64,000 nt of DNA from an uncultured Alphaproteobacteria bacterium (GTDB lineage Bacteria > Pseudomonadota > Alphaproteobacteria > Rhizobiales > Hyphomicrobiaceae): positions 780,311 to 844,310 of the forward strand of contig CAVTAS010000008.1 of NCBI GenBank assembly GCA_963732765.1, given 5' to 3'. Of the stretch, positions 13,177 to 52,660 are shown piece by piece; the first letter of the stretch is position 1; each line of letters begins with the position of its first letter. A program made the position numbers and the translations under genes. The notes under the pieces are model-generated. The model was given only the letters and a program-made list of their open reading frames with translations, searched no databases and was not told where the DNA came from.

Positions 13177-13194
13177 CGCGAACAAATGTTCGCG
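13177..13194. promoter_or_regulatory. Perfect palindrome CGCGAACA-AA-TGTTCGCG in the phaR-phaA divergent intergenic region; candidate PhaR operator
   Basis: 8-bp perfect arms with a 2-bp spacer, about 80 bp upstream of the phaA ATG. CTGC-containing motifs lie nearby. Confidence 0.3.
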
Positions 13195-13272
13195 GTGGGC
13201 TATTGGACGCAAGGGCTGCCTGCTGCTAAATGAGGCATTCGCCCTCAGTTTCGGCCAGCAAGGATCACCTCC

Positions 13273-24751: not shown

Positions 24752-25155
24752 TATGAATTGCCCGAGAGCAGGTGGCTGGCCACGGAAATGTACTTCCGCC
24801 CCGCGTCCTTGGCCTGATTGATGGCCTCAGCCAGCGGCAGTTCGTTGCGGATGGTGGCCAGCTTGATCAGCATCGGCAGGTTGATGCCGCAGATGACCTC
24901 GATCTTGGCGTCTTCCATCACCGAAATGGCGAGGTTGCTTGGCGTGCCGCCGAACATATCGGTGAGCACGGCGACGCCATCGCCCTTCTCCACCCGGCCG
25001 ACCGATTGCAGGATTTCCTCCCGCCGCATCTCCATGTCGTCTTCCGGGCCTATCGACACGGTTTCGATTTGTGTCTGCGGTCCAACGACATGCTCCAGCG
25101 CAGCGCGGAATTCCGTCGCCAAGCCGCCATGTGTGACAATCACGAGCCCGATCAT
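24751..25155 (-). CDS. PTS EIIA component, mannose/fructose family
   Basis: MIGLVIVTHGGLATEF...LTDMFGGTPSN... Confidence 0.8.
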   Translation of the reverse strand: MIGLVIVTHGGLATEFRAALEHVVGPQTQIETVSIGPEDDMEMRREEILQSVGRVEKGDGVAVLTDMFGGTPSNLAISVMEDAKIEVICGINLPMLIKLATIRNELPLAEAINQAKDAGRKYISVASHLLSGNS

Positions 25156-25383
25156 GCGTTTATCTTATCCCCAAAGGCCCCAAGCCGACGCAACGGGAGG
25201 ACATATCTAGGCGCGCTCACGGGCACATGCAAGTTGCTGCAGCGCAACAGGGATGGCGAGAGCTACTGTTATGCGCGGCGCCAATCCCAACTCAAAGTCG
25301 ATGCGTATTGTCGGGCGCCATGAGTTCGGCGCATGTTGTCACATAGAGCCAGCGCCAAGCGTGGCCTTATGAGGAGAACGCCA

Positions 25384-27011: not shown

Positions 27012-27237
27012 CCCTCTCCCCTTCGCTTTTTCTGCGAAGGGGAGAGGAGACCGCGTCTCGCAGGCGCCATTTTGCGCCAACAGCCACGCGGTCGGTGAAG
27101 GGCAGCAGCTTGTAGCTCTGCCTTTGAGCCCTGTACGGAGCAAGCGGCTGCCCCTCACCTGTCGCTATCTCCCTCGCGCTGACGCGCTTCGGGGCGACAT
27201 CCTCTCCCCTTCGCCGAAGAGGCGAAGGGGAGAGGAG
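27012..27237. repeat. Family B hairpin-capped palindromic element, copy 2
   Basis: CCTCTCCCCTTCGC…GGCGAAGGGGAGAGG termini. High identity to copy 1 internally. Confidence 0.7.
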
Positions 27238-33001: not shown

Positions 33002-33424
33002 CTACGGCGTTGCCTTGTCCTGCCAGTTGACCAGCAACAGTCCTTTGACGCGCTTGAACTCACTGACGTTGCGCGTCACAAGCGTCAGGCCACGATTAAG
33101 GGCCTGTCCCGCGATCAAAATGTCGTAGGGACCGATGGGTGTTCCGGCGAAGTCAAGGGTCGCGCGAATTCGGCCTGCACACGCTGCGTCCGTGTCGCTC
33201 AGCGCAATCACGTCCTTTACCAACTTAAGGAAGTCCTTGAGGTCAGCCTGCGCGGAATCTATTCGTGCGCTTTTGCCAATCCCATATTCCAGTTCGAATA
33301 AGACAATGCTGGGCACGACGATTGTGTTGCCCTTGCCGCGCGCCTTTTCGAACCTTTTGCGAACTTTCGCATCGCCCTTGATCGCGGCAATGATAACATT
33401 GGTGTCGAGCGCGAATGTGGTCAA
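33002..33424 (-). CDS. vapC: Type II toxin VapC (PIN-domain ribonuclease)
   Basis: [18 protein letters not shown]... PIN acidic residues present. Confidence 0.8.
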
Positions 33425-33663
33425 TCGAACATATCCCCGGTCTCGTCATCGGGCATCGGCGGTTGGTTGCGCTCTAAATCGACCGGACCTCGGGCATCGA
33501 TGGCAGTCCAGATCTCGTCCAGGCTTTGAGGGATCGGCTCAAGCAACAGTCCACCCTCGACCGCGCGGATGCGCACTTCCTTTCCGGGCAAGCGGAATTG
33601 CTTGGGTAGCCGCACCGCCTGGCTGCGACCGCTCATGAAGATTTTTCCGGTGGCCGTGGGCAT
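33421..33663 (-). CDS. vapB: Type II antitoxin VapB (AbrB/MazE/SpoVT-like)
   Basis: ...[14 protein letters not shown]... 4-nt overlap with vapC. Confidence 0.7.
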
Positions 33664-33752
33664 GGAGCACCTCGCTGGATTTGGTAGTACCAGTGATATA
33701 TATCAAATCCAGCGCCGCCGGTCAAACCATCATGTTGCCGGCGGTCCTTGTC

Positions 33753-33968
33753 TTCTCCTCTCCCCCGTCTTCGGGGGAGAGGATGTCGCCCGAGCGCAAA
33801 GCGCGAGGAGAAAGCGACAGGTGAGGGGCAGGTGCATGCTCCGTACCGGTGGTGAGAAGGGTACGGAGCAAGTCCCTGCCCCTCACCGACCGCGTGGCTC
33901 TCCGCGCTGAAACGCGCTGCGAGACGCGGTCTCCTCTCCCCTCGCTGAAAAAGCGAGGGGAGAGGAGG
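33753..33968. repeat. Family B hairpin-capped palindromic element, copy 3 (reverse orientation, more diverged)
   Basis: CTCCTCTCCCCCGTCTTCGGGGGAGAGGA … TCCTCTCCCCTCGCTGAAAAAGCGAGGGGAGAGGAGG, with a central CAGGTGAGGGGCAGG/…CCCTCACCG palindrome. Confidence 0.65.
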
Positions 33969-33988: not shown

Positions 33989-35428
33989 TTACCCAATCAC
34001 CTTCAGGCCGCCCATGTAGGGCTGCAGCACGTCCGGAACCGCGACGGTGCCATCCGCCTGCTGATAGTTCTCCAGCACCGCGACCAGCGTGCGTCCGACG
34101 GCGAGGCCCGAGCCGTTCAGGGTATGCACGAAGCGGGTTTCTTTCGCTGCCTTGGCCTTGAAGCGTGCGCCCATGCGGCGGGCCTGGAAGTCGCCGCAGA
34201 CCGAGCAGGACGAGATCTCGCGATACGTGTTCTGGCCGGGCAGCCAAACCTCGATGTCGTAGGTCTTCTGGCTGCCAAAGCCCATGTCGCCGGTGCACAG
34301 CAGCATGGTGCGGTAGGCCAGGCCCAGGCGCTTCAGGACTTCCTCCGCGCACGCCGTCATGCGCTCGTGCTCTGCTTGGCTTTGCTCGGGCGTGGTGATG
34401 GAGACCAGTTCCACTTTGCTGAACTGGTGCATGCGGATCATGCCGCGCGTGTCGCGCCCGGCCGCCCCAGCCTCGGAGCGGAAGCACGGCGTCCAGGCGG
34501 TGAAGCGGAGGGGGAGTTCCTCCTCGTCGAGGATTCTTTCACGCACATAGTTGGTGAGCGGGACTTCGGCGGTGGGGACGAGATAAAATCGTTCCTCGGT
34601 ATTCTCAAAGTCCCATCCGTCTTCATCAAAATTGTCCATCAGGGCCTTAGCGAGCCCTTCCTTTGACCAGCCTTCCGGCAGGCCACCTGTCCGTATCGAA
34701 ATGGTCTCTGCAATCTTTTGCGTCAGACTGTTTGCGTTATCCTGAACCGGCTTAAACGCCTTAAAGAGATCGTTTTCAAACTTCGGCAGCTGCCCCGTCC
34801 CATACATCGCCTCGTCCCGCACCATCAGCGGCGGCACGAACTCCGTATACCCAAATTCCGTCGTATGCAGATCGAGCATGAAATTGCCGAGCGCTCGATC
34901 GAGCCGCGCCAACTGGCCTTTCAGGAACACGAAGCGCGCGCCCGACACTTTGCCGGCGGTCTCGAAGTCCATCAGCTTTAGGGCTTCGCCGATTTCGAAA
35001 TGCTGCTTGGGTTTGTTGGTGTGGGTGAGCTTGGGCGGCGTGCCGACTTTGCGCACCTCCTTGTTGCCGTGCTCGTCCTTGCCGTCGGGAACGTCTGGCA
35101 ACGGAATATTCGGGACGACTTCCAGGATCTTCTGGATTTTCGCGTCGACCTCGCGCTCCTGCTCCTCGCCCGCCGCGATGGTGTCCTTGATCGCGGCCAC
35201 CTCGGCCATCAGCTTGTCCGCTGTGGCGTTGTCCTTGGCTGCCTTGGCCTTGCCGATGTCCTTGGACGCAGCGTTGCGGCGGCTCTGGGCCTCTTGCAGC
35301 CCGGTGACAATGGCGCGGCGCTCTTCGTCGAGTTTCAGTAGCTCGGGCGACAATGGCGCGAGGCCGCGGCGCGCAAGGCCCGCATCGAAGGCGGCGGGGT
35401 TGTCGCGAATCCATTTGATGTCGTGCAT
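33989..35428 (-). CDS. serS: Serine--tRNA ligase
   Basis: [11 protein letters not shown]...; class II aaRS motifs. ATG at 35428. Confidence 0.9.
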
Positions 35429-35550
35429 GGGAGATCTCCGCCTCGCCCGCTGGGGGAGGGTCATGTGAACGAAATTTCGCTGAGTTCTAACGAAAAGAGG
35501 TGTGCCCCGCCACCCTCTTTGGCCACGAACCCGAGCGCATCGGCTCTATC

Positions 35551-37824: not shown

Positions 37825-38816
37825 TCACATCCCCCAGCGCAAGGCTGGCGTCCGCACCGGGGCGTCCCACAGGTGCATGAGGCTGTCGTCGAGGCGCGTC
37901 AGCGTGATCGAGCAGCCGGCCATGTCGAGGGACGTGACATAGCTGCCGACCAGCGAGCGGGCGATGACGACGCCATGCTGCTCGGCGACGCGGCGGGCGT
38001 TGTCGTACATGAGATACAATTCCATCGCCGGCGTGCCGCCAAAGCCGTTGATCAGCATCAGGCACGGGCCCCGCGCCGCCGCGCCAAGGTCGGCAACGAT
38101 GGCGCTCGACCATTTCCTCAGCGATGGCCTTGGCAGGCATGAGCGGGACACGGCGCCGGCCGGGCTCGCCGTGAATGCCGACGCCCATCTCCATCTCGTC
38201 GGCGCTGAGTTGCGAAGGTTGAGCGGCCAGCGGCGGGCACCGTGCAGCTGCTCAGGGCAACGCCCATCGAGCGGGTGGCCTGGTTGACACGGGCGCCGAT
38301 TGCCTGGCAGCCGGCGAGTGTGTCACCGCGCTCAGCCGCCGCGCCGACCATCTTCTCCACGATCAGCGTGCCTGCGACGCCGCGCCGGCCGGTTGTGAAC
38401 AGAGAGTTCTGTACTGCGACGTCGTCATCGATCAGGACGCGCTCGATTGCGCCCCCGATCAGCTCCGACGCCATCTCGAAGTTCATCACGTCGCCTTCGT
38501 AGTTCTTCACGATCAGCAGCACGCCGGCCCCGCCGTCGACAGCGGCGGCGGCCGCCAGCATCTGATCGGGCGTGGGCGAAGTAAAAACCTGGCCTGGGCA
38601 GGCGGCATCCAGCATGCCGTGCCCGACAAAACCGGAGTGCAGCGGCTCGTGGCCGGCGCCGCCGCCCGAGATCAGCGCGACTTTGCCCGGCGTAACGATC
38701 TTGCGGCGGACGAATTTGCTATCAGCGCCCAGACTCACCGTGTCGGCATGGGCCGCGACAAAGCCGGCGAGACTTTCGGCCAGTGCGGTGGCCGGCGCAT
38801 TGATCAGCTTCTTCAC
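37825..38816 (-). pseudogene. dhaK: PTS-dependent dihydroxyacetone kinase subunit DhaK, with at least 2 frameshifts
   Basis: A DhaK is readable in three frames: GTG 38816.. (VKKLINAP…[10 protein letters not shown]…CTVPAAG), 38194.. ([31 protein letters not shown]) and 38151..37825 (…LINGFGGTPAMELYLMY…LWDAPVRTPALRWG). Confidence 0.65.
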
Positions 38817-38874
38817 GAACTCTTCCTCGTGTGTCCCGGCTCTCGTGTCCCAGTTCTTGTGTTGCGGGCCGCGC

Positions 38875-39300
38875 CTACGATCCTGACAATAGATCGGCCA
38901 GCTTGCGCATGAAATCATTGACTAACGCATGCAGTTTTTCATTGCGCTCGTCGTCGCCGAGATCGGGCAGCTGAAAAGTATGCGATTTGAGCCGCTGCGC
39001 CTCGGCAAGCAGTACCGGACGGCGCGGATGAGCGCGCGCATAGGCCGCCAGGAAGCGCTGCCGCTCCTCGGCGGAGAAATGGCAGACTTCGAAGATCAGC
39101 TCGATATGGCCGGCAGGGATCGGTGTGGCATAGGCCTGGCTCGCGATATGGCTGACAAAACTGCGGTTCTTGCCGAGTGCCGTCGCCAACCGGCCGCGCG
39201 TGCCAGAGGGGCGGCGCTCCAGGACCTGCGCCAGAATGAGCTTGTATTCCGCAACCGGAGTGTCCAAAGGCTCGGCCACCGCGGCATCAGGTTTGGCCAT
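38875..39300 (-). CDS. XRE-like helix-turn-helix protein embedded in the dha locus; possible regulator
   Basis: Helix-turn-helix-like [23 protein letters not shown]. Start ambiguous (ATG 39300 or TTG 39312). Confidence 0.4.
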
Positions 39301-41679
39301 CGGGGCCTCCAATATCGATTCCGGCTAGCGCGGTCTTGACGCGGCCAAGGGCGGCTGGGGCCACAGAGAAGGACCGCAGGCCGATGGCCAGCAGCGGTTT
39401 CAGCAGATTGACGTCGCTGGCTATGTCGCCGCACAGCGAGATGTCGAGGCCAAGCTGGCGTGCACTTGCGACGGCGCCGGCCATGAGTTGCAGCACAGCT
39501 TCGGGAGCGCCTTCGTTGAAACCGGCAACAGCTGGCGTATCGCGGCTTGCCGCCATGACGTACTGTGTCAGATCGTTTGAACCGATGGAGAAGAACGCCG
39601 CGTCCTTGAATTGCGCGGCCAAGATGGCGGCAGCGGGTACTTCGATCATGATCCCAAGTGGCGGGCGGCGGTGCGGTGTCGCCTTCGCGCGCAAGCTCTG
39701 CACACACATCGCCTTCCAGCTGCCGCGCGGCGGCCAGCTCCGATGGCAGCGTCACCATCGGTAACATCACCTTGAGGTCGCCATGCAGCGCGGCGCGGGC
39801 GAGCGCGCGCAACTGCACGCGGAAGACATCGGGCCGGGCCAGCATCAGGCGGACGCCGCGTGAGCCGAGGAACGGATTGCTCTGGCCCAATGGCGTCAGC
39901 CCACGGATCGGTTTGTCACCGCCGGCATCGAGCGTGCGGATGGTCACCGGTTTGCCGTCCGCCCACTCCAGGCAGCGGCGATAGGCAAGGTACTGCGCAT
40001 CTTCGCCCGGCAAAGGTTCGCCATCCCTGAGCATCATCTCGGTGCGGAAGAGATCCGATGCCGTCGCAGGCAGTCGGGGGCGATTGCGTCAAGATCGTCC
40101 GGGCCGGAAATGTTTATCAGGACTGCTATGGCCACACCGTCCCGGGTTTTCGCCGGACGGTAGAGCGCGGCCTGCTCCATACCCTGCGAGGCGCCCGGCT
40201 TGCGCCTGCTGCGCGCGTCAGCCCGGCCACGTCCGCCGCGTTCGGGACTCAGCACAATGCGGCCGCGCGTGCCATCAACGATGGCCATGCGATGCCCATC
40301 GAGCGGCAAAGGCCCGAGGCCAACCACCATCGGAACGCCGCGGTTGCGGGCCAGCATGGCGACGTGGCTGGACGGGCTGCCGCCTGCGAGCATGATGCCG
40401 CCGCCTTGCGACCAGTCGGCTTCCAGAAACTGGCTGGGCGCCAGATCCTCGGCTGCGAGGATGGCGCCCGCGGGCAACCGCTGAGGAGCCGCGCCGCCGC
40501 GCAAGCCGCCGTAGCACGCGATCGCGCAGGTCAATCAGATCGATAGTGCGGGCACGGAAATACTCGTCGTCCGACGATTGATAGTCGGCGATCTGATCGA
40601 GGATAGCAGCGCTCCAGGCTTTATCGGCATGGCGCCCCGGCAGCGATGGCCTCCAGCGCCGGTTTGCGCAGCACCACGTCGGCCAGCATAGCAGCCTGGA
40701 ATTCGAGCATGTCGTCGACCATCGCCGCTTAAACTTGCGGCAAGCCGTTCGATCTCGGCGATCGAGGCTCGCATATCGAGGCCATCTAGCGTGCCGCGCT
40801 CCTGGGCGGGCGCTTCCTACTGCCCGCTCGCCGCAACCGGGGGCGCGATGACTGCGATGGTTCCGTGCAGCTAGCCCCGGCGACGCCGCCAGGCCGTCAA
40901 GCAAGTTGCTCAGCGGCTACCGGCACTTGCGATTTTGTCGCGGTCTTCGTCGAAGTTGCGCTCGACGAGGGCGACCAGCGCGGCGATGGCGGGTTCGGCA
41001 TCGTCACCCTCGGCCTTGATCGCGAGCGCAGTGTTGCCAGGCGTCTTCAGCGCCATCACTTTGACGATGCTCTTGGCGTCCACCCAGTCGGAGCCTGCCC
41101 GCCAGGACGAACCTGCACGCTCGCCCGGAAGGTCTTGGCGAGCTTGCTGAATTTTACCGCCGGGCGCGCGTGCAGCCCGGTGGGATTGGTCATCAGCACC
41201 GACGCCTCGGCCTTGCCCGATGTCATGGCTGCTCCTGGTGCTGATTATGATGGCGTTTGACTGGTCATCATCTTGGCCTCGCACCGGATTAGACCGGCGA
41301 CAGCTCCTCTGCGGTGCGGCGCACTTCGGCCGAGCGACGCACCGCCCGACGCCTCGGTCGCCGCCATCACGGAGCCCTCGACGATCGGGGCGTTGCAGAC
41401 AATGATCTTACCCTGACGGTCCGCCGGCATCATTTCCACGGCCATCTCGCTGTTGGTCTCGGCGCCGCCGAGGTCGACCAGGATAACGACGCCTTTGTCC
41501 GACCACGCCTCGTCGATGGCGGCCATGATGGCTGCGACGCTGGTACCGAGCCCGCCTTCGGGGTTGCCGCCGCACCAGGCCAGCGGAACGTCCGCGCCCA
41601 CCATCTGGCGCACCATGTCGGCTGCGCCTTCCGCCACTTTGGCCGAATGCGAGACAATGACGATGCCGACATTGCTCAT
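39287..41679 (-). pseudogene. dhaM: Multidomain DhaM (EIIA-Man / HPr / enzyme-I PEP-utilising domains), fragmented by multiple frameshifts
   Basis: EIIA: ORF 41245-41679 (IVIVSHSAKVAEGAADMV). HPr-like: 40910-41284. Enzyme-I pieces: 40275-40904, 40034-40534, 39096-40037 and 39287-39709 (…FSIGSNDLTQY…), all in different frames. Confidence 0.6.
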
Positions 41680-42316
41680 GTCCGGCCCTCCAGCACGTCG
41701 AGGACGGCATCGACGATCAATTGACTGGAACGTGCGCCGGGGTCCATGTGGCCGATGGACCGCTCGCCCAGGAACGAGGCGCGGCCGCGGGTCGCCAGCA
41801 TCGGAATGGTCGCGGTGGCGGCGTCGGCAGCGGCCTTTCGGGATGGAAGGCCTGCTTCGCGAGTGCGGCCTGAACTGGGATCAGCACATCGAGCATCGTC
41901 TTTTGTCCGGGTGCGGACTTGCCGCGTGCCTGGACGGCTGCGATGGCGGACGCGAATGCCTGGACAGCGTCCGCCTCGCGTTGCTGCGGGCGGGATCGCC
42001 TTACCAAGCGCCATGAACAAAGTGCCGAACAGCGGACCCGACGCGCCCTCCGACCTTCATCACAAGAGTGGTGCCGATCGCCTGCAATGCCTGAGGCAAC
42101 GGCTGAGCTGCGATCTCGTCGATGTCGCCCCAGAACAGCTTCGAAACCGCGCTGCATGTTGAGGCCGTGATCGCCATCGCCGATCGCCTGATCTAGCGCG
42201 GTGAGTTCACCGGCGTGCTCGATGACGCGGCCGGCGACCGCTTCAATCAGCTTACGGATGAGCGCTTCGTCGACTTGCATTGCGGGTAGAAACTCCGTAT
42301 TCGTCTCAATTCTCAA
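41676..42316 (-). pseudogene. dhaL: Dihydroxyacetone kinase ADP-binding subunit DhaL, frameshifted
   Basis: ORF 41717-42316 starts MQVDEALIRKLIEAVAGRVIEHAGELTALDQAIGDGDHGLNM, then degenerates. The C-terminal part continues in the frame of ORF 41676-42020 (…SIGHMDPGARSSQLIVDAVLDVLEG). Confidence 0.55.
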
Positions 42317-43953
42317 CCCTGACTCTTGTGCAGCGCCTGCAATGCCGTGGCGATGGCGACCGCGCCAGGATCGGGCACGCCTTGCAGATCGCGCGCTGCG
42401 AGATAGCTGGAGCGGCCCGCCCGCGCCGAGGTCATGTTGGCGGTGCTGGCGGCTCCGGCCTGGGCTGCTGCGGCTGCCGCGCCCAGGCCCTCGCCCTTTT
42501 CAAGCGCGCGCACGGCCGGGCGCAAGGCGTCCAGCATGGTGCGGTCGCCTTCTTTGGCGCCGCCGTAGTATTCCATGCGGGCAAGGCCGAAACTCAAGGC
42601 CGCGCCCCAAGGCGATCCGCCCGCCAGGGCATGGCCAGTTGCCGAGGCAAGTATCGACAGCAGCACGCCGCTTGACCCGCCCATGCCCTTGGCGAAGGTG
42701 TCGGCGAGCGCGCCGGCGAGCTGCGCGTCGTTGGCCAGCGGCAACTTGTCGACCGTGCCGAGAACGGCGCGGGCTGCGTTGGCCATGGTGGTGCCGGTGT
42801 CGCCGTCGCCGACCTTGGCGTCGAGCAGATTGAGGTCTGCCTCGGCGGCGATGATCGCGGTGCTGACGGTTTCCACGGCGCGCCGGACTTGAGGATTTGC
42901 CGAGGGCGCATAGGCGGCGGCGCTTGCCGACTCGATGCTGTCAACCCGCGAGACTGGCGCGGTGGAGCGCACGCCCGGCCAGGCGGGGGCAAGGGTCGGC
43001 GCCAGCAGCGCTTCGGTCAGGTCGCGGTCGAGCACCAGCACAGAGATCGAGAAGCCGCGCATGTCGAGCGCGGTCATCAGCGGCGCCGGGCCGATGACGA
43101 ACTGCGTGCGCCGGCCAATCTCGGTTTCCAGCACGGACTTGGCGACCAGCGACATCTCGATCGCGGGCATGCCACCGAGATTGTTGATGATCATGGCCAG
43201 CGCCGGCGCACTACTAGGGCCCGCCCCGAAGCGCTCGGTCATCAGCCGCGCCGCATCGTTGGCGCTTGGCAGCGGGATGCGCTCGATGCCGGGTTCGCCG
43301 TGGATGCCCAGGCCCAGTTCGGCCATGCCCTCGGGCAACCGCTCGTGCGTGGCGCGGCCGGGGATGGTGCAGACGGTCGAGGCGATGCCGATGGATTGCA
43401 CCGCGTCCGCCGCTCTTTCCGCCGCGGCTTTGACTCTGGCGAGATCGAGGCCGCGCTCGGCCGCATACCCCGCGATCTTGTGCACGAATAGCGTGCCGGC
43501 AACGCCGCGCGGCCTGGGTGCGTTGGCGATGGCGATATCGTCGGCGACGATCACCATCTCGACGTTCAAACCCTCAGCACGCGCCTTTTCTGCCGCCAGT
43601 CCGAAGTTGAGCCGGTCGCCAGCGTAGTTCTTGACGATCAAGAGGCAGCCGGCGGGCCCGGTTACCGCATGGATGGCGGTCAATACGGCGTCGACGGAGG
43701 GCGAGGCGAAGATCTCGCCGCACACGGCCGCCGTCAGCATGCCCTCGCCGACAAAACCGACGTGGGCGGGCTCGTGGCCCGAGCCGCCGCCCGAGATCAG
43801 GCTGACCTTGCTCTTGTCGATGTGCTGGCGCAGCACGATCTTGGCGCCGCTGGGGCTGGCCAGCCGGGCCAAACGCCCACAGCCGGCGACACGCAGATAG
43901 CCGTCGATCGAGTCCGAAATGACAGCGCCGATTTCATTTACAAAGTGGGTCAT
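42313..43953 (-). CDS. Intact two-domain (DhaK-DhaL fused) ATP-dependent dihydroxyacetone/glycerone kinase
   Basis: MTHFVNEIGAVISDSIDGYL…ISGGGSGHEP… (K domain) and …LLDAKVGDGDTGTTM… (L domain) in one 546-aa frame. The upstream extension in the track ORF is spurious. Confidence 0.8.
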   Translation of the reverse strand: MTHFVNEIGAVISDSIDGYLRVAGCGRLARLASPSGAKIVLRQHIDKSKVSLISGGGSGHEPAHVGFVGEGMLTAAVCGEIFASPSVDAVLTAIHAVTGPAGCLLIVKNYAGDRLNFGLAAEKARAEGLNVEMVIVADDIAIANAPRPRGVAGTLFVHKIAGYAAERGLDLARVKAAAERAADAVQSIGIASTVCTIPGRATHERLPEGMAELGLGIHGEPGIERIPLPSANDAARLMTERFGAGPSSAPALAMIINNLGGMPAIEMSLVAKSVLETEIGRRTQFVIGPAPLMTALDMRGFSISVLVLDRDLTEALLAPTLAPAWPGVRSTAPVSRVDSIESASAAAYAPSANPQVRRAVETVSTAIIAAEADLNLLDAKVGDGDTGTTMANAARAVLGTVDKLPLANDAQLAGALADTFAKGMGGSSGVLLSILASATGHALAGGSPWGAALSFGLARMEYYGGAKEGDRTMLDALRPAVRALEKGEGLGAAAAAAQAGAASTANMTSARAGRSSYLAARDLQGVPDPGAVAIATALQALHKSQG

Positions 43954-43999
43954 CACCGGCTCCTTGCAGCGACTTGTGTGTTGTCCGAGGTCATGGGCA

Positions 44000-45017
44000 C
44001 TACCCGTGCACGCGATTGCCGGTGGCATCGAAATAGAGCGGGCGCGCCAAACCCACATCCACGCCGTCGCCCGCGCTGAACGCCGCGTCTGCCGCCACCA
44101 GCGATGTAATGCGGTGCTCGCCGATACGAATGTGCAGATGGCTCTGATCGCCCAGGTGCTCGATCCACTCGACCTTGCCGACGGCATTGCCATTCGCCGA
44201 CTTGGCGATGCGCAGATGCTCGGTGCGCGCACCCAGCGTCAGGGCAGCCTTCGGCGCGCCGCCATCGGGAATGAGCCCGGTCGGCAGCAGATTGATCTGC
44301 GGTTGCCCAAGGCGCGTTGCTACATACACCGTCGATGGATTTTCGTAGATGTCGCGTGGCGTGCCCAGCTGCACCAGTTGGCCACGATCCAGCACGCCGA
44401 TGCGGTTGGCCATGGTCATGGCCTCGATCTGGTCGTGGGTGACGTAGAGCAGCGTGGCGCCGAGATCCTGTTGGATCCGTTTCAGCTCGACGCGCATGTC
44501 GCCGCGCAGCTTGGCGTCGAGCGAGGACAGCGGCTCGTCCATGAGATAGATGGCGGGGCGGCGCACCAGCGCGCGGCCGATGGCGACGCGCTGCATCTCG
44601 CCGCCGGACAGCTGCGTGGCGCGGTTTTGCAGTTTCTTGCCGATGCGCAGCATTTCGGCGATTTCTGTGACGCGCCGTTCGATCTCGGGCTCGGCCATGC
44701 GGCGCGCCGGCGAGCGCAGCGGGAAGGCGAGGTTTTCGAACACCGTCAGATGCGGATAAAGCGAGTACTGCTGGAACACGAAGGCGACGTCGCGGCCCGC
44801 GGGCTCGATCCCGGTGACGTCGCGGCCGCCGATCCAGACTTCGCCGCTGTCGATTTTCTCCAGGCCAGCGACCACGCGCAGGGTGGTGGTTTTGCCCGCT
44901 CCCGTGGGGCCGAGCAGGACGACGAACTCGCCATCGGCGATGCGTGAGATCGACCCCCGACACGGCGGTGGTTGCGCCGAAGCGCTTGACGACGGATTTG
45001 AGCTGGACATCAGCCAT
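44000..45017 (-). pseudogene. Sugar-type ABC transporter ATP-binding protein (GlpT/UgpC-like) with an apparent frameshift near 44940
   Basis: N-terminus MADVQLKSVVKRFGATTAVSGVDLT is in the frame of ORF 43953-45074. The rest (IADGEFVVLLGPTGAGKTT…LSGGEMQRVAIGRAL…) is in the frame of ORF 44000-45010. Confidence 0.6.
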
Positions 45018-46122
45018 GGGACACCCGCGCGCCGATGGCGCCCTCGTGCAGCGCCGAAGGCACCGCCCGGCCACTGGATTTGACGAACACGCAGAGCCGT
45101 TCGGGGGCGAAGACGAGGCCGACCTGCTCGCCGGTGCGGACGCTGGTTTCTGCAGGCAAGCGCGCCTTCAGCCGCCCCTCGGCGGTCTTCAGCGTGACGA
45201 TCTGTGTTGTGCCTAAATACTCCGTACCGAACACTTCGGCGCGCAGTTTCGAGGCGTCGGAGAACCGGACGTGTTCGGGGCGCACGCCCAGAACGAGGTC
45301 GGTCTCGGCCACCGCCTGGCGCGCGGCCGGTACAGCGATATCGGCGCCATTGATGCTGACAGCCGATTGATTGGGCGCCAGGCTGCCCCTGAACGGCACG
45401 AAATTCATCGCCGGTGAGCCGATGAAGTCAGCCACGAACATGGTCGCGGGGCGGTCGTAGATCTCTTGCGGAGCGCCGAGCTGTTCGACCAACCCGTGGT
45501 TCATGACGGCGATGGTATCGGCCATCGACATGGCCTCGATCTGATCGTGCGTGACGTAGACGGTGGTCGCACCGATGCGATCGTGCAGCTGGCGCAGTTC
45601 CTGGCACATCAGGTGGCGGAATTCGCTGTCGAGCGTGCCAAGCGGTTCGTCCATCAGGAAGGCCTTGGGACGGCGCACGATGGCGCGACCGAGCGCGACG
45701 CGCTGGCGGTCGCCACCGGCAAGGCGCGAAACGGGGCTGTCTAGCAGGTGGTCGATGCGCAGAAGCTTGGCCGTTTCCTCGACGCGCGTCTTGATCTCGG
45801 CCCGCGGCATATTCTGGCAGGCCAGCGGATAGGCGATATTCTTGCGCACGTTCATGTGCGGGTAGAGCGCGAACAGCTGGAACACGAAAGCGATGTCGCG
45901 TTCCGAGGCGCGCTTCTGGGCGACGTCTTCATTGTCGAGCAGGATGCGTCCCGAGGTTGGCAGCTCCAGTCCCGCTATCATGCGCAGCGTCGTGGTCTTG
46001 CCGCAGCCCGAGGGGCCGAGCAGGCAGAAGAACGAACCGTCCTTGATGGCGAAGGACGAATCCTTGACGGCGACGAAATCGCCAAACGACTTGTGCAGAT
46101 TTTCAACCCGGATCTCGGCCAT
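45010..46122 (-). CDS. Sugar-type ABC transporter ATP-binding protein (GlpS/MalK-like)
   Basis: Walker A GPSGCGKTT, signature LAGGDRQRVALGRA, and a C-terminal TOBE/MalK-like domain. Confidence 0.85.
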   Translation of the reverse strand: MAEIRVENLHKSFGDFVAVKDSSFAIKDGSFFCLLGPSGCGKTTTLRMIAGLELPTSGRILLDNEDVAQKRASERDIAFVFQLFALYPHMNVRKNIAYPLACQNMPRAEIKTRVEETAKLLRIDHLLDSPVSRLAGGDRQRVALGRAIVRRPKAFLMDEPLGTLDSEFRHLMCQELRQLHDRIGATTVYVTHDQIEAMSMADTIAVMNHGLVEQLGAPQEIYDRPATMFVADFIGSPAMNFVPFRGSLAPNQSAVSINGADIAVPAARQAVAETDLVLGVRPEHVRFSDASKLRAEVFGTEYLGTTQIVTLKTAEGRLKARLPAETSVRTGEQVGLVFAPERLCVFVKSSGRAVPSALHEGAIGARVSHG

Positions 46123-46124
46123 GG

Positions 46125-46361
46125 CTACTCCGGGAATTTCGATGAGATCACGAACAGCGCCGTGCCCGCGAGCGTCGTGATGAAGGAATAAGAATAGAGC
46201 GTCAGGAAAAACGGCTGCATCAGCATGACCACGCCGAGCGCAATTAGAAGTGTAGCGAGGTTCTCCCAGGGACCGCGGCGCAGGCGCAGAAAATCGGCGA
46301 TGAAGCCGGTCTTGGCTGGCGGCTGGTAAAGCTCGCGGTCGGTGGGGCGAGGGTCGCTCAT
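46125..46361 (-). CDS. Small DUF2160-type membrane protein associated with glycerol-type ABC transporters (GlpU-like)
   Basis: 78-aa two-TM protein. It sits between the ATPase and permease genes. Confidence 0.55.
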   Translation of the reverse strand: MSDPRPTDRELYQPPAKTGFIADFLRLRRGPWENLATLLIALGVVMLMQPFFLTLYSYSFITTLAGTALFVISSKFPE

Positions 46362-47325
46362 TTGCGCACCGCGCCGAAGGTGATGCCGCGCAGGAGATGC
46401 TTGCGCATCAGCACCGTGAAGACCAGGATCGGGATCAGGAACAGGGTCGTGCCACCGCCGACTGCCGGCCAGTCCATGCCGCCCTCACCGATGATCGTTG
46501 GGATGAAGGGGGGGGCGGTCTGCGCGGTGCCCGAGGTAAGCAACACGGCGAAGGCATATTCGTTCCAGGCAAAGATCAGGCAGAAGATGGCGGTGGCCGC
46601 GATGCCGGTGAGCGCTTGCGGGAGAACGACTTTGCGGAACGCCTGCAACCGCGTGTAGCCGTCGATCATGGCCGCGTCTTCGTACTCGCGCGGGATTTCG
46701 TCCATGAAGCCCTTCAGCAGCCAGACGGCCAATGAGACGTTCACGGCTGTATAGAGAAGGATCATGCCGAGCGCGGTATCGGAGAGGCCGAGCTGGCGGT
46801 ACATCAGGTAGATCGGGATGGCCACGGCGATTGGCGGCATCATGCGCGTCGAGAGGATGAAGAAGAGGAGATCGTCCTTGAGCGGCACATTGAAGCGCGA
46901 AAAACCGTAGGCGGATAGCGTTCCGAGAACCACAGCGAGGAAGGTCGAGCCGAACGCTATGATGATGGAGTTGACGAAGCGCGGCCAGTAGTTCGACGTA
47001 CCGGCAATCACCATGTCGCGGCTGCGCGTGATCTGATCGCAGGTGCCGGTGGCCGGTCCCAGAGTTTCGATATATTCCTTAGTCTGACGGGTGCGCGTGG
47101 TGAAGAGATTGCAATAGCCTTCCAGCGTCGGCTGGAACACCACTTTGGGCGGATAGGAGATCGAATCCGGTGGTGTTTTGAGGCCGGTCGCAAAGATCCA
47201 GAACAACGGCACCATGGTGATGACCGCATAGAGGATTACCAGCGTGCCGGCCACCCACTTGGCGGTAGCGCTCGGCGCGACGACGGAATGGGCCGTGCTT
47301 GCTTGCGAAAAGACAGGTGCGCTCA
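46358..47325 (-). CDS. Carbohydrate ABC transporter permease
   Basis: MSAPVFSQ… with an EAA-loop-like region. The track ORF to 47977 is a spurious in-frame extension into the upstream permease. Confidence 0.8.
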
Positions 47326-48279
47326 TCTGTTCTTCACCTGGTTGAGCGCCTTTACATAGATGTTGGCGAGGCCGAAGACCGCGACGAACAGTATTATGGC
47401 GAAGGCGGATGAATAGCCGGTGCGCCATTTCTCGAAGGCTTCGCGCTTCAGGGTGATGGACGCAACCTCGGTGACCGATCCGGGTCCGCCGCCCGTCAAG
47501 AGGTTGACCATGTCGAACATCTTGAAGTTCTCGATGCCGCGAAAGAGGACGGCCAGCATGATGAAAGGCAGCGCCATCGGCAGCGTGATGGTGAAGAACT
47601 GCCGCACCGGCGAGGCGCGGTCGACCTCGGCGGCCTCGTAGATGTAGTCGGGAATGGAGCGCAGGCCGGCCAGGCAGATCAGCATGACATAGGGCGTCCA
47701 CATCCAGGTATCGACGATGATGATGGCCCAGGGCGCGAGTTTCACCGATCCCAGCATCTCGAACGAGGATGGCTCCCAGCCCGTGAAGAACGAGACGATG
47801 TAATTGAACAGCCCGATCTGCGGCTGATAGAGGAACTTCCAGAAATTGCCGACCACGGCCGGTGACAGCATCATGGGGATGAGGATCACGGTGGTCCAAA
47901 AGGCGTGTCCACGGAATTTCCGGTCGATGAGATAGGCGAGGGCAAAGCCCAGCAGCGTCTGCAAGATGATGGTCCACACCACGAAATGGGCGGTCGCCTG
48001 CATGGCCGCCCAGATGTCGGGGTTGGAGAGAATGGAGCGGTAGTGCTCGATGCCGACGTTCAAAACCGGCGCATTCGGACGATTGGCGCGATAGTTCGTG
48101 AACGACAGATAGATGGTCCAGATCAGCGGGAAGATGTTGATCGCCAGCAGCAGCACGATCGTCGGCGCGATGAACAGCCAGGCGATGACCCGGTCCGACA
48201 GGCCGCGCACCATCCGCGCCACCGGTTCGGGCGTCGCGGCGGCAATGCGTCCTGCTGATGATGTGGTGATGTCGGTCAT
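47323..48279 (-). CDS. Carbohydrate ABC transporter permease
   Basis: MTDITTSS…; six-TM MalF/UgpA-like. Confidence 0.8.
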   Translation of the reverse strand: MTDITTSSAGRIAAATPEPVARMVRGLSDRVIAWLFIAPTIVLLLAINIFPLIWTIYLSFTNYRANRPNAPVLNVGIEHYRSILSNPDIWAAMQATAHFVVWTIILQTLLGFALAYLIDRKFRGHAFWTTVILIPMMLSPAVVGNFWKFLYQPQIGLFNYIVSFFTGWEPSSFEMLGSVKLAPWAIIIVDTWMWTPYVMLICLAGLRSIPDYIYEAAEVDRASPVRQFFTITLPMALPFIMLAVLFRGIENFKMFDMVNLLTGGGPGSVTEVASITLKREAFEKWRTGYSSAFAIILFVAVFGLANIYVKALNQVKNR

Positions 48280-48323
48280 GGGGTTTCGTTCGGTCAGCCG
48301 TTAGAAAGCCAGGAGGTCGTTGC

Positions 48324-48411
48324 GTAGGGGCGACACGTGTGTCGCCCGTCCATCATATCCACGGACGCCTGCGGTTGTGGATAGACGGGCGACCCACGGG
48401 GTCGCCCCTAC
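48324..48411. repeat. Family D palindromic element (GTAGGGGCGACAC/GTGTCGCCC … GACGGGCGACCC/GGGTCGCCCCTAC), copy 2
   Basis: Two hairpins bounded by GTAGGGGCG and CGCCCCTAC. It lies between the SBP and permease genes. Confidence 0.55.
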
Positions 48412-48448
48412 ATTTCTGGCGTTGATGGAGCGGCCGGCGCGGCACGCT

Positions 48449-49771
48449 TTACAGCTTGCCTTCTTCCTTGAAGGTCGCGGTCCAATCGACGATCAGGGCG
48501 TCGAGCGCTTCCTTGGCGGTGCCCTTGTCGGCCACGACGTAGTCGTGCAGCCGCTTCTGCATCGCCTGCAGCAGCGTGGCGTAGGCCGGCTCCTGCCAGA
48601 AGTCCTGCACGCCGCCCATGGCTTCCAGGAATTGCGGCGCGAACGGCTGCGAAGTCTTGAAGCCCGCGTCATTCAGCACAGCGTTGTGGCAGGCATAACC
48701 GCCCAACGACCACCACTTCTTCTGCACCTCAGGCGTGGCGAACCACTTGATGTACTGCAGCGCCTGGTCCTTCAGGTCGGAGTTGGCGACCACCGAGATG
48801 CCCTGGCCGCCGAGCGTCGAGCCGGCGATCTTCTGGCCCGGGTTGACGAAGAAGCCGGTGACTTTGCCGACCTTCTCGTCCTTGGCCATGCCCGGCATGA
48901 ACGCGAACCAGTTCATCATCATGGCGACCTGGCCAGACTTGAACGCATCGAGACCTTCGCCCATGTAGCTGTCCGTATACCCCGGAGGTGTGCAGCACTT
49001 GTAGAGCGACTTGTAGAACTCGAGACCGGCAACAGCGTCAGCTGAGTTGACCGCGCCGTCCATGTCGTACTTGCCAGCGGTCTTCTCGTACTTGAAGCCG
49101 AACGGATAGAGCGCCGAGGTGGCGCCCATGGTGATGCCTTCGGACGCGCGCTCGGTGAAGATGGCGGCGCCATAGACTTTCTTGCCATCGACTTCGCGGC
49201 CCTGGAAGAATTCGGCCGTGTCCTTCAACTCGCTCCAGGTCTTGGGAACGTCGAGGTCGCGGCCATACTTCTTCTTGTATTCGGCCTGCAGTTCGGGTTT
49301 GGCGAACCAGTCCTTGCGATAGAACCAGCCGTTGGCGTCACCCATGGCCGGCAGCGCCCAGTAGTTCGGCGTACCCTTGGGCCAGGTCGAATAGGCGTAG
49401 ACGGTGGCGGGAGCGAAATCGCTCATCTTGATTCCTTCTTTGTCGAAGAAATCGTTGAGCTTCACATATTGCTTGTTCTCGGCTGAGCCGCCGATCCACT
49501 GACTGTCGCCGATCAGAAGATCGCACAGCTTGCCGCCGGAATTGAGCTCGTTGAGAATGCGGTCGGTAAAGTTCGGCCAGGGCGTGAATTCGAACTTCAT
49601 CTTGATGCCGGCCTGTTTCTCGAAATCCTTCGAGAGCTCGACCAGCGCGTTCGCCGGATCCCAGGCAGCCCAGCAGAGCGTCAGGTCCTTGGCCGAGGCC
49701 GTCGCGAGACTGCCCGTCCAAAGCGCACCCGCGAGGCCCAATGCCAGCGCGGACTTCAGCAAAGTCCTCAT
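48449..49771 (-). CDS. ABC transporter periplasmic substrate-binding protein (family 1, glycerol/sugar type)
   Basis: Signal peptide MRTLLKSALALGLAGALWTGSLATASA. Strong RBS GGGAGGAGA before the ATG at 49771. Confidence 0.85.
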   Translation of the reverse strand: MRTLLKSALALGLAGALWTGSLATASAKDLTLCWAAWDPANALVELSKDFEKQAGIKMKFEFTPWPNFTDRILNELNSGGKLCDLLIGDSQWIGGSAENKQYVKLNDFFDKEGIKMSDFAPATVYAYSTWPKGTPNYWALPAMGDANGWFYRKDWFAKPELQAEYKKKYGRDLDVPKTWSELKDTAEFFQGREVDGKKVYGAAIFTERASEGITMGATSALYPFGFKYEKTAGKYDMDGAVNSADAVAGLEFYKSLYKCCTPPGYTDSYMGEGLDAFKSGQVAMMMNWFAFMPGMAKDEKVGKVTGFFVNPGQKIAGSTLGGQGISVVANSDLKDQALQYIKWFATPEVQKKWWSLGGYACHNAVLNDAGFKTSQPFAPQFLEAMGGVQDFWQEPAYATLLQAMQKRLHDYVVADKGTAKEALDALIVDWTATFKEEGKL

Positions 49772-50162
49772 CTTGTCTCCTCCCATGTGGGTCAAACAAC
49801 GAGGCCGGCACATGCCGGTTCGCCGTACGTCAGTCGCCGCAACATGCGGTCGCTGATCCCGTTATCGCCGGCTCGACCGATAGGGCCGCAAGCCAGCGTT
49901 GTTTAGCAATTTTGTTTAGTGAAGCTCATTTCACTAAACTTGGCAAGGGCGTCGCGAATCTTTTTTCGACTGGCGCGCATCTGCAGGGCATACGCATCAA
50001 ACGGCGGGGCGAAGTGCCGAATCTGCCAAGTGCCAAGCCGGTCGGCCGCAAATTCCGGCACGACCAGCGGGCCGGCGTTCAAACTCTTTTTATCGAAGCC
50101 TGCTAGCCTTACGGGCTCGAAAGCCGTCGCCGTGCGCAAGCGCCAGGCCGTCACAGGGAGGC

Positions 50163-50576
50163 ATGCCCATGACCAATTTCGTCCTGATCGACCCGCTTCG
50201 TCGCCCCGCGTCCGTGAATACCGCGCCGGCAGCGCGCGCGCCGCAGCAACGCCAGCCGCAAGCCGCGCGCGGCAGCAATCGCCGCGAAGATAGCCGCGCC
50301 CCCTCGCGCATTCGCGGCCTCGTCGCTGGCAACGCGGGTGTGGCCGACATCCGCTGCGAGATCATCGATCAGTCGGCCTCGGGCGTGCAGATCGAGGTCC
50401 CGGCCAACACCGACGGCATCGGCACGCGCGTGCGCGACATCCCGGAACGCTGTGAGCTGACGATGCAGACCTATGGGGCGGCGTCGCAGGTGCAATGCCT
50501 GGTAGTCTGGCGCCGCGGCCGCCGCGCGGGGCTGCGGTACCTGGGGCCGGTGAAGAAGGTGGCAGTGAGGAGATAG
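50163..50576 (+). CDS. PilZ-domain (c-di-GMP-binding) protein
   Basis: RxxxR-type N-terminal motif (NRREDSRAPSR) and a D/SxSxxG-like motif (DQSASGVQIE). Confidence 0.5.
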   Translation: MPMTNFVLIDPLRRPASVNTAPAARAPQQRQPQAARGSNRREDSRAPSRIRGLVAGNAGVADIRCEIIDQSASGVQIEVPANTDGIGTRVRDIPERCELTMQTYGAASQVQCLVVWRRGRRAGLRYLGPVKKVAVRR

Positions 50577-50583
50577 GGTGCCC

Positions 50584-51723
50584 TCACCCCTCCGCCGCAA
50601 ACACCAGCATCGCCGCCGGGTCCACGCGCACGCCGACGTCCTCGCCGCGGCGCACCGGGACGGTCACGCGCAGGCGGGCGCGCAGCACGCTGTCCAGGCC
50701 ATCGACGGCCAGGTCGACGATCACCACGTCGCCCATGAATTTGACGTCGAGGACGCGGGCGGCGCGGCCCTGGCCGGCGGGCAGGAGTTCGACACCGCGC
50801 TGGCGCACGCAGAGCACGGCGCTGGCGCCCTCCGCCAACCCCGGGGCGGGCAGCGACCCTAGCGCGGTGGCGATGGCGCCGGAGCGCACCACCGCGGGCA
50901 CTTCGTTGATGTCGGAGAACAGTCTGGCCACGAACAGATCCGCAGGCGCGGCATAGAGCGCTTCCGCCTTGCCCTGCTGGATGATCCGTCCACCGCGTAG
51001 CACCAGGATGCGGTCGGCCAGCCGCATCGCCTCCTCGGGATCGTGCGTGACGATGATCGAGGTCGCCTTGGTCTCGCGCAGCACCTGCAGCGTCTCTTCC
51101 TGCATGGAGTGGCGCAGCTGCACGTCGAGGCCCGAGAAGGGTTCGTCCATCAGCAGCACGCCGGGGCGCGGGGCCATGGCGCGGGCGAGCGCGACACGCT
51201 GTTGCTCTCCCCCCGACAAACTATGCGGATAGCTCTGGGCATAGCGGGCCAGGCCGACCCGTTCGAGGGCGGCCAGCGCCACGCGCCGGCTCTGGTCGGC
51301 CGGCAGCGCCCACAGGCCGAACGTGACATTCTCCAGGATGGTGAGATGCGGGAAAAGCGCGAAATCCTGAAACATCAGGCCGATGTTGCGCTTTTCGGGC
51401 GGCACGAAGCGTTCCTCGCCTGCGACCTCCATGCCGTTGAACAGCACGCGTCCCTTCGACGGCTTCTCGATACCGGCGGCGATGCGCAGCAACGTGGTCT
51501 TGCCGCAGCCCGAGGGGCCGAGCAGGCAGACGATTTCGCTTGGGCTGACTTCCAGCGTGACGCCGGAAAGAGCGTGCGTCGGCCCGTACCATCGGTGCAC
51601 GTCCTCGAAGCGCAACGCGGACGCAAAGGTGGCGCCGGCCGAGCCGCGACGGCCCCAACTGGCGCCAGTCGCGGCGCCATCGTCCGCTGGCGGAGCATTC
51701 TGCGAGACGGGGGCCAGGGTCAC
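50584..51723 (-). CDS. ABC transporter ATP-binding protein (FbpC/PotA-like) with no cognate permease or substrate-binding protein in the window
   Basis: GPSGCGKTT, LSGGEQQRVALARA, and a C-terminal TOBE-like domain. Confidence 0.75.
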   Translation of the reverse strand: MTLAPVSQNAPPADDGAATGASWGRRGSAGATFASALRFEDVHRWYGPTHALSGVTLEVSPSEIVCLLGPSGCGKTTLLRIAAGIEKPSKGRVLFNGMEVAGEERFVPPEKRNIGLMFQDFALFPHLTILENVTFGLWALPADQSRRVALAALERVGLARYAQSYPHSLSGGEQQRVALARAMAPRPGVLLMDEPFSGLDVQLRHSMQEETLQVLRETKATSIIVTHDPEEAMRLADRILVLRGGRIIQQGKAEALYAAPADLFVARLFSDINEVPAVVRSGAIATALGSLPAPGLAEGASAVLCVRQRGVELLPAGQGRAARVLDVKFMGDVVIVDLAVDGLDSVLRARLRVTVPVRRGEDVGVRVDPAAMLVFAAEG

Positions 51724-51777
51724 GATTGGGGTGGCGCCCCGTCGTCAACCGGAAATGGCAGTACCCAAGGGCAACCC

Positions 51778-51893
51778 AATGGCGTCATCCCGGCACAGGC
51801 CGGGACCTGTCCGAGGTGCAGGAGGATGCGCCGGTCGTTCAAAGCGCTCATTCGTCGTCACTTCGGGCTTGGACGGGTCCCGGCCTGCGCCGG
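51778..51893. repeat. Inverted repeat GTCATCCCGGCACAGGCCGGGAC … GTCCCGGCCTGCGCCGGGATGAC. The right arm lies inside the scpB 3' coding end.
   Basis: 23-bp arms about 70 bp apart. The right arm encodes …SSRRRPGP… of the ScpB C-terminus. Confidence 0.4.
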
Positions 51894-52660
51894 GATGACG
51901 AAGCGGGCGACTCCGGGTCTTCGGTGTCCCCTAGCATTTCATCTCCGCCGTCCATGTTTTCGGGATCGTCCGCCGCCGTCCCATCGCTCTCGTCCTCGGC
52001 ATCTAGCGGCAACTCATCGGCCTGCAGACTTGCCAGCAGTTCGGGATCAGGCACCTTGAAGCCGGGGGGAAGACTGGAATCGAGCAGGCCGGCCCCCTTC
52101 AGTTCGGCCGCGCCCGGAAGATCGGCGAGGCTCTCGAGCCCGAAATGGTTCAGGAACCCCTCGGCGGTGCCATAAGTGACCGGCCGCCCCGGTGCCCGCC
52201 GGCGCCCGCGTAAGCGCACCCAGCCGGTCTCCATCAGCGCATCCAGCGTGCCCTTGGACGTGGCCACGCCGCGGATCGCCTCCACCTCGGCGCGCGTCAC
52301 CGGCTGGTGGTAGGCGATGATGGCCAGCGTTTCGAGAGCGGCGCGCGAGAGACGCTTTTCGGTCTGGGATTGCTTCTCCAGCAGATAGCCAAGATCCGCC
52401 GCAGTGCGGAACGCCCATTTGCCCGCGACCTTGACGAGGTTGACGCCGCGCGGGGCATAGACCGTCTGGAGCTGCTGCAGCAACCCGGGGATATGGGCGG
52501 AGGGCGGTAACTCCTTGGCGAGGTCCGTGACGGCCAGCGGGGCGGGCGCAGCAAACAGCAGCGCTTCAAGCACGCGCAATTGCTGCGCGGTCTCGGCGGT
52601 GGCCTCAGGCGCTTGGGGCGGTTCGGGCATTCGCGGGCGTTTCTGTGCGGCGGCAGTCAA
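51848..52660 (-). CDS. scpB: Segregation and condensation protein B
   Basis: …LRVLEALLFAAPAPLAVTDLA… and an acidic C-terminal tail. Start is TTG at 52660 or ATG at 52630. Confidence 0.8.
   Translation of the reverse strand: MTAAAQKRPRMPEPPQAPEATAETAQQLRVLEALLFAAPAPLAVTDLAKELPPSAHIPGLLQQLQTVYAPRGVNLVKVAGKWAFRTAADLGYLLEKQSQTEKRLSRAALETLAIIAYHQPVTRAEVEAIRGVATSKGTLDALMETGWVRLRGRRRAPGRPVTYGTAEGFLNHFGLESLADLPGAAELKGAGLLDSSLPPGFKVPDPELLASLQADELPLDAEDESDGTAADDPENMDGGDEMLGDTEDPESPASSSRRRPGPVQARSDDE

Follow-up and report, generated by a model that had tools for sequence, protein, structure and literature searches.

A block of thirteen genes on the minus strand, all in the same direction and lying within positions 37825-49813 (Pfam), was analysed in the window, a stretch of 64,000 nucleotides (nt) of contig CAVTAS010000008.1 from an uncultured alphaproteobacterium of the Hyphomicrobiaceae. 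The block contains in full a 13-gene accessory cluster that is widespread in the Hyphomicrobiales, and the evidence supports a coherent module for the uptake and phosphorylation of dihydroxyacetone (DHA). In the sequence as given, 16 frameshifts interrupt dhaL, dhaM, the genes for HPr and Enzyme I (EI), and dhaK, that is, the branch of the module that depends on phosphoenolpyruvate (PEP). The frameshifts in the block are probably single-base insertion errors in a long-read metagenome consensus, and the genes in the organism itself are most likely intact. The module is real but ordinary, one more member of the cluster.

A scan with one genome per species returned 80 loci, 52 of which contain the complete cluster in the same order: substrate-binding protein (SBP), permease, permease, small membrane protein, ATPase, ATPase, fused Dak1-Dak2 kinase, DhaL, EIIA (DhaM), HPr, EI, a helix-turn-helix (HTH)-like protein and DhaK. 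Among the carriers are many Mesorhizobium, Rhizobium, Sinorhizobium/Ensifer, Phyllobacterium and Pararhizobium genomes, one Methylobacterium and several uncultured Hyphomicrobiales, including Hyphomicrobiaceae, and a copy is also present on plasmid pNGR234b of S. fredii NGR234 (403-415 kb). The closest locus, L001 from a Hyphomicrobiaceae metagenome-assembled genome (MAG), has 79% nucleotide identity to the window over 10.5 kb. Because the 13-gene unit is shared by 52 loci, the combination of an ATP-type kinase, a kinase of the phosphotransferase system (PTS) type and an importer represents the ancestral architecture. This departs from the initial annotation, which had described two redundant DHA kinase systems, one of them decayed; the kinase pairing and the transporter belong to a unit conserved in at least 52 other genomes. 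Variants of the cluster were also observed: a relative from a Joint Genome Institute (JGI) metagenome, L083, has only a single ATPase, and its fused kinase is frameshifted close to the end, and in the Microflora Danica MAG L023 (9998-21617) the cluster order is rearranged, with the fused kinase first. No experimental studies of the cluster were found in the literature searched, and it appears to be widespread and annotated, yet experimentally unstudied. To our knowledge, the carrier bacteria are otherwise without sugar transport by the PTS. The analysis delineates a conserved cluster with a six-part ATP-binding cassette (ABC) importer that includes a new small subunit, a DAK-family kinase, and a DhaKLM system with its own EI and HPr.

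The frameshifts were located by frameshift-aware dynamic programming, in which the window was aligned with the intact proteins of L001. Seventeen were found in the block (DhaK, 2; EI, 8; HPr, 1; EIIA, 1; DhaL, 4; ATPase 2, 1) and none in the coding sequences of the other seven block genes; an extra call, at residue 12 of the SBP in an extended L001 open reading frame (ORF), precedes the true start of the gene. When applied to L081, a JGI metagenome locus used as a control, the programme returned no frameshifts, which argues that it does not invent them. The alignment thus agrees with the initial annotation in that DhaL, EIIA-Man, HPr, EI and DhaK are frameshifted in the sequence, as is the second ATPase, and in that the fused kinase is intact beside its frameshifted neighbours. 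Pfam likewise detects Dak2, EIIA-Man, PTS-HPr, PEP-utilizers, PEP-utilizers_C and Dak1 as fragments in several frames (37828-42280). For the window as a whole, frameshifts were called by codon-usage tiling together with Pfam checks, which replaced a frame plot of GC content at third codon positions that was too noisy. A phaA-like thiolase (acetyl-CoA acetyltransferase) gene, which adjoins phaR, is spread over three frames by two +1 frameshifts, with a thiolase profile that is contiguous over the breaks (Thiolase_N 1-104, 105-259, then Thiolase_C; Pfam), and a gene for a PMT_2 glycosyltransferase is split into two frames by one +1 frameshift. The lesions are therefore not limited to the block.

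All of the events are net insertions, both in the block (17 of 17; 15 of +1 and two of +2) and in the window (20 of 20; sign test, P = 2e-6), and the affected genes exceed the length of their orthologues by exactly the inferred number of inserted bases. An apparent -1 event in the HPr gene turned out to be a net +2 event in a four-way DNA alignment. Where the alignments are clearer, the inserted base does not extend a homopolymer, and a visual scan of the alignments revealed no consistent motif, GANTC or other, at the frameshift sites. A relative more than 95% identical to the window was sought, but the best loci (L001, L081 and L083) reach only 79-82% nucleotide identity, and for this reason the exact inserted bases are ambiguous at most sites. 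The events are strongly clustered: 16 of the 20 lie in the 4.45-kb operon from dhaL to dhaK (P ~1e-15), and the background rate elsewhere in the window is 0.07 per kb.

Once the frames are corrected, the affected genes have the appearance of genes under constraint. The corrected frames contain no in-frame stops, the six frameshifted genes of the block contain no residue deletions, and all of the corrected genes reach the orthologous stop codon except that for HPr, which extends a few codons further to "...ASAGSR*". Across DhaL, DhaM, HPr, EI and DhaK, 249 of the 251 residues that show no variation at all among the 52 other clusters are kept, as in intact genomes; neutral decay at 5-10 substitutions per indel predicts the loss of 10-20 of them (P = 0.002 or lower). 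In searches with profile hidden Markov models (HMMs), the corrected DhaK scores 462.7 against a TIGR02363 cut-off of 406.25 (intact L001 protein, 454.6), the corrected DhaL 209.3 against a TIGR02365 cut-off of 138.3 (L001, 203.4), and the corrected DhaM 142 against a TIGR02364 cut-off of 98.25 (L001, 139.5). The corrected HPr clears the TIGR01003 subfamily cut-off, and EI remains under the TIGR01417 cut-off of 341.7 both in its corrected form (310) and in the intact form of L001 (335). Ratios of non-synonymous to synonymous substitution rates (dN/dS) on the window branch range from 0.13 to 0.28 among the frameshifted genes, the intact fused kinase having a ratio of 0.22, and relative-rate tests with ten outgroups are balanced, with no surplus of lineage-specific amino-acid changes. 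It should be noted that the dN/dS and relative-rate tests have low power against very recent decay, so that the invariant-site test is the informative one. The gene-specific decay proposed in the initial annotation is not borne out: the lesions are insertions only, stops and deletions are absent, nearly all invariant residues are kept, and unrelated genes are affected as well.

If the frameshifts are consensus errors, these would be concentrated in a stretch of about 4 kb in which the consensus is locally poor, for example, due to low coverage or strain mixing. Database signatures suggest that the assembly of the window is a Nanopore MAG, like the Microflora Danica MAG L007 (P0024). The Microflora Danica MAGs are Nanopore-only Flye assemblies with one round of Medaka, and their authors report effects of sequencing errors at lower coverage (PMC12313526). 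Frameshifts, at least 25 in number and mostly +1, are distributed over all cluster genes of L023, another Microflora Danica MAG, which is thus a useful comparator for long-read consensus errors. Several observations weigh against consensus errors. The Nanopore origin is itself deduced from database signatures, and Nanopore errors are usually described as linked to homopolymers, which the insertions in the window are not. Frameshift density in the dhaL-to-dhaK operon is about 50 times that of the rest of the window, and the flanking 1.6-kb fused kinase gene contains no frameshifts at all (P = 0.003 at the local rate), while their absence from the 438-nt HTH gene inside the damaged stretch is unremarkable (P = 0.2). 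Because the clustering spares the fused kinase, the damaged stretch coincides with one functional unit, as it would in the decay of a real operon. This overlap is the one observation in favour of biology, and a dip in coverage or a mixture of strains can produce such clustering. Finally, the HPr gene of L083 (5894-6192) contains a -1 frameshift about 5 nt from the HPr lesion of the window (41080-41100). The proximity reflects either an indel hotspot or coincidence; descent of both lesions from one event was considered and rejected, since the indel states differ (+2 versus -1).

A genuine and very recent pseudogenisation of dhaL, dhaM, the HPr and EI genes and dhaK in this lineage, with retention of the ABC importer and the ATP-dependent kinase so that the organism would rely on the ATP-type enzyme alone, is unlikely. 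The grouping of the frameshifts in one operon, with the adjacent fused kinase and regulator spared, would be expected from it, the loss of one of two kinases for the same class of substrate is biologically plausible, and natural decay of the cluster is seen in L083, in which one ATPase is missing and the fused kinase and HPr are frameshifted. Nevertheless, gene decay in bacteria is expected to include deletions (deletional bias), and every event in block and window is an insertion; nonsense mutations are absent and the invariant residues are kept, and the corrected DhaK, DhaL and DhaM score at least as high as intact orthologues. Sixteen independent inactivating hits with almost no substitutions are unlike neutral drift, and the same type of lesion is present in the thiolase and glycosyltransferase genes. 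Rather improbable is a special case in which the frameshifts are real and were generated by an unusual, locally acting process that produces only +1 insertions and has inactivated the entire PEP-dependent branch; if true, the lineage would offer a natural experiment in which the two kinase branches prove separable, and would point to an insertion-biased mutational mechanism that acts locally. A mixture, in which a few lesions are real (for example, that in HPr near the L083 hotspot, or that in ATPase 2) and the remainder are consensus errors, has very little probability. The HPr lesion does differ in size and lies near the independent frameshift of L083, and the background error rate in the rest of the window is low; however, relative to L001 and L081 the HPr gene has two bases more in the window and one fewer in L083, which makes the events separate, and in both lineages the protein sequence of each HPr half is still conserved. 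Errors in the consensus thus remain the preferred explanation. More generally, dense frameshift clusters of the size of an operon in long-read MAGs can mimic lineage-specific gene loss, and, even when reads are lacking, the two can be told apart by three checks: which kinds of indel occur, how many invariant residues are kept, and how the frame-corrected proteins score against HMMs.

The genes of the block are located where the initial annotation had placed them (Table 1). Amino-acid identities to L001 are about 95% for the SBP (80% to that of S. fredii NGR234 pNGR234b), 96.5% for permease 1, about 95% for permease 2, and 89% for the frame-corrected ATPase 2, which reaches the orthologous stop and has its frameshift directly before the Walker A motif. 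The top NCBIfam match of ATPase 1 is the UgpC subfamily, under the cut-off. In the fused kinase, Dak1 comprises residues 36-323 and Dak2 residues 380-542 (Pfam); the protein is under the NCBIfam cut-offs of TIGR02361 (515.6 vs 574.95) and NF011049 (452.7 vs 492), and an identical database protein exists (P0001). Neither the 78-amino-acid (aa) membrane ORF nor the 145-aa ORF matched a Pfam or NCBIfam family. The core of the former, RRGPxENxAT...VSKFPE, is kept at the same position in 55 loci. The 145-aa protein is present at the same position in 58 loci and carries an invariant RPSGxR..LA..LG...SF motif; a profile search against the PDB returned weak similarity (E ~0.07) to XRE-family HTH proteins including 3f6w, and a single-sequence AlphaFold2 model is all-helical with low confidence (predicted local distance difference test, 55). 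EIIA, HPr and EI had been taken for one fused dhaM gene but are three genes with their own stops and starts, here and in relatives: the EIIA gene ends at a TAA, and the ATG of HPr lies beyond a spacer of 62 nt that contains a ribosome-binding site. The window also contains, outside the block, a second, intact EIIA-Man and HPr pair, probably the alphaproteobacterial housekeeping pair of the regulatory PTS (manX/ptsH type).

Table 1. Features of the window, listed from the block outwards (positions are those of the 64,000-nt stretch; frameshifts are given as net insertions)
Feature	Position	Strand	Remarks	Assigned by
SBP (SBP_bac_1/8)	48449-49813	-	454 aa, uninterrupted	Pfam
ABC permease 1 (BPD_transp_1)	47323-48279	-	uninterrupted	Pfam
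ABC permease 2 (BPD_transp_1)	46358-47335	-	uninterrupted	Pfam
Small predicted membrane subunit	46125-46361	-	78 aa, uninterrupted, without Pfam family	
ABC ATPase 1 (ABC_tran, OB_MalK, TOBE_2)	45010-46122	-	uninterrupted	Pfam
ABC ATPase 2 (TOBE domain)	44000-45017	-	one +1 frameshift near 44939	Pfam
Fused Dak1-Dak2 kinase, ATP-dependent DAK type	42313-43953	-	546 aa, uninterrupted	Pfam
dhaL (Dak2)	41676-42280	-	four frameshifts: +1, +1, +1, +2	
dhaM, EIIA-Man-like phosphoryl donor	41289-41679	-	one +1 frameshift near 41328	
Dedicated HPr-like phosphocarrier	40910-41226	-	net +2 frameshift near 41087	
Dedicated EI-like PEP-protein phosphotransferase	39287-40990	-	eight frameshifts, all +1; start coordinate approximate	
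Conserved protein with HTH-like N-terminal half, putative regulator	38875-39312	-	145 aa, uninterrupted	
dhaK (Dak1)	37825-38816	-	GTG start; two +1 frameshifts at ~38207 and ~38104	
PilZ-domain ORF between backbone ATPase and block	50163-50576	+	PilZ 25.2 (cut-off 22.5)	Pfam
ABC ATPase beside scpB, conserved backbone	50587-51744	-		Pfam
Inverted repeat between scpB and backbone ABC ATPase	51783-51900		33 nt, 91% complementary, 52-nt loop	
Seryl-tRNA synthetase gene	33989-35464			
PIN-domain toxin and MazE/AbrB-type antitoxin pair	33005-33702	-		
Intergenic repeat, three copies	20348-20517, 27039-27211, 33742-33941		170-200 nt, internal inverted repeats	
Second EIIA-Man and HPr pair	24461-25164	-	intact	
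Thiolase (phaA-like)	13234-14459	+	three frames	
phaR	12338-13225	-		
PMT_2 glycosyltransferase	5755-7411	+	two frames	

The position of the cluster is specific to this genome, as initially proposed: in none of the more than 80 related loci are tat or scp genes found beside it. Its neighbours are sugar ABC genes and a DAO oxidoreductase in L001 and nas genes and a pirin gene in L081, and in NGR234 it lies on a megaplasmid. The nearest relatives by ScpB, L084 and L085 (82% identity), share argS, the SPOR gene, nagZ, scpA, scpB and the ABC ATPase with the window. The latter had been regarded as an orphan; it is part of the backbone, and in these relatives it likewise follows scpB (87% amino-acid identity). 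The PilZ ORF is absent from this position in L084 and L085. Synteny with both genomes breaks off at window position 50588, precisely where the backbone ATPase gene ends, and gives way to RHS-like fragments, which suggests that the ATPase junction is a variable spot. In L084, the region past this ATPase (11922-13630) was observed to contain a C-terminal fragment resembling an RHS core (with a YDPVLGRFMTPD motif) and small ORFs. In L086, scpB is followed by DUF815, yajC and secDF, and in the nearest relatives by TatB either an esterase and a superoxide dismutase or a sugar ABC system precedes tatA. The assumption of a usually contiguous backbone is thus at odds with the nearest relatives (L084-L091), in which scpB and tatA are in different neighbourhoods. 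The cluster sits at a synteny breakpoint, at which it may have been inserted, or the backbone may have been rearranged around it.

It is conceivable but doubtful that a mobile element recently brought the block, as a genomic island, into an otherwise contiguous scpB-tatA backbone. The neighbours of the cluster do differ in every lineage examined, and synteny with L084 and L085 does stop precisely with the backbone ATPase. However, no integrase, tRNA, insertion sequence element or flanking direct repeats were found around the block, the GC content of the block resembles that of its surroundings, and the premise of a contiguous backbone fails in L084-L091, in which scpB and tatA are not adjacent.

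The families of the encoded proteins allow a function of the cluster to be proposed. The ABC importer, composed of the SBP, two permeases, the small subunit and two ATPases, would take up DHA or a related small ketose or polyol, which would then be phosphorylated by the ATP-dependent two-domain kinase of the DAK family. Members of this family also phosphorylate erythrulose and glyceraldehyde, and, because the fused kinase is below the equivalog cut-off for glycerone kinases, another triose or tetrose is a possible substrate. The alternative route would be the PEP-dependent kinase DhaK-DhaL-DhaM, to which the EI and HPr encoded in the cluster itself would pass phosphoryl groups, with a predicted phosphorelay from PEP via EI, HPr and DhaM to ADP held on DhaL and finally to the substrate bound to DhaK. 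The likely regulator is the 145-aa HTH-like protein, the gene for which lies between those for EI and DhaK. In E. coli, regulation by DhaR works with DhaK and DhaL, and by analogy the 145-aa protein may act together with these two proteins.

Additional features were noted in the window. The spacer between scpB and the backbone ABC ATPase contains an inverted repeat and is about 190 nt longer than in L084 and L085, where the two genes overlap by 4 nt; the C-terminal tail of ScpB is altered. An intergenic repeat, either a repetitive extragenic palindrome or similar to a miniature inverted-repeat transposable element, occurs three times and is also present in L001 (949-1117 and 21363-21541; 72-84% identity). 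The toxin-antitoxin pair lies just past the seryl-tRNA synthetase gene, on the side opposite tatC.

Four known systems invite comparison with the cluster. The glycerol transporter GlpSTPQUV of the R. leguminosarum plasmid pRL9, the composition of which has been described (PMC7912956), has the same six components, that is, two ATPases, two permeases, a small membrane protein and an SBP, and the block had been called similar to it. The six-part make-up stands; gene order and orthology do not. The pRL9 operon consists of glpR, glpD, ATPase, ATPase, permease, permease, the DUF2160 gene, the gene for an SBP of 574 aa, and glpK, so that its transporter genes run from ATPases to permeases, DUF2160 protein and SBP, whereas the order in the window is SBP, permease, permease, small protein, ATPase, ATPase. 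The SBP of the window has 454 aa and is 34% identical to that of pRL9 over only 160 residues, the permeases are 27% identical and the ATPases 32-38%, and glpR, glpD and glpK are absent from the vicinity of the block. The small subunit had been labelled a DUF2160 protein; the 78-aa protein has no DUF2160 match in Pfam even at E values up to 1 and none in NCBIfam, and tblastn revealed no similarity between the pRL9 DUF2160 gene and it. The resemblance to GlpSTPQUV is one of the number of parts only. A paralogous system without kinases has the gene order of the window and is found on an R. leguminosarum plasmid (SBP identity, 43%).

The fused kinase resembles the ATP-dependent DhaK I of Citrobacter freundii and Klebsiella in that Dak1 and Dak2 are combined in one polypeptide, and differs from the TIGR02361 glycerone kinases in scoring below the equivalog cut-off. 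An ATP-type kinase alongside a PEP-dependent one has been reported for K. pneumoniae (PMC4777399). The PEP-dependent branch is similar to DhaKLM of E. coli, as the corrected DhaK, DhaL and EIIA-Man-like DhaM exceed the NCBIfam equivalog cut-offs. In contrast to the multidomain DhaM of E. coli, the phosphoryl donor consists of separate EIIA, HPr and full-length EI proteins dedicated to the cluster; a small uncharacterised HTH-like protein takes the place of a DhaR-type regulator, and five of the genes are frameshifted in the sequence as given. The block also corresponds to the copies in S. fredii NGR234, Mesorhizobium and other genomes (Mesop_0215-0220; mll5289, mll5296), the gene content and order of which are identical to those of the block, with about 80% identity for the SBP and the permeases and 50-57% for the kinases. 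The dhaK, dhaL and dhaM genes of M. loti and M. opportunistum have been listed (PMC4777399). Unlike the copy in the window, these have unbroken reading frames and are located in other genomic contexts.

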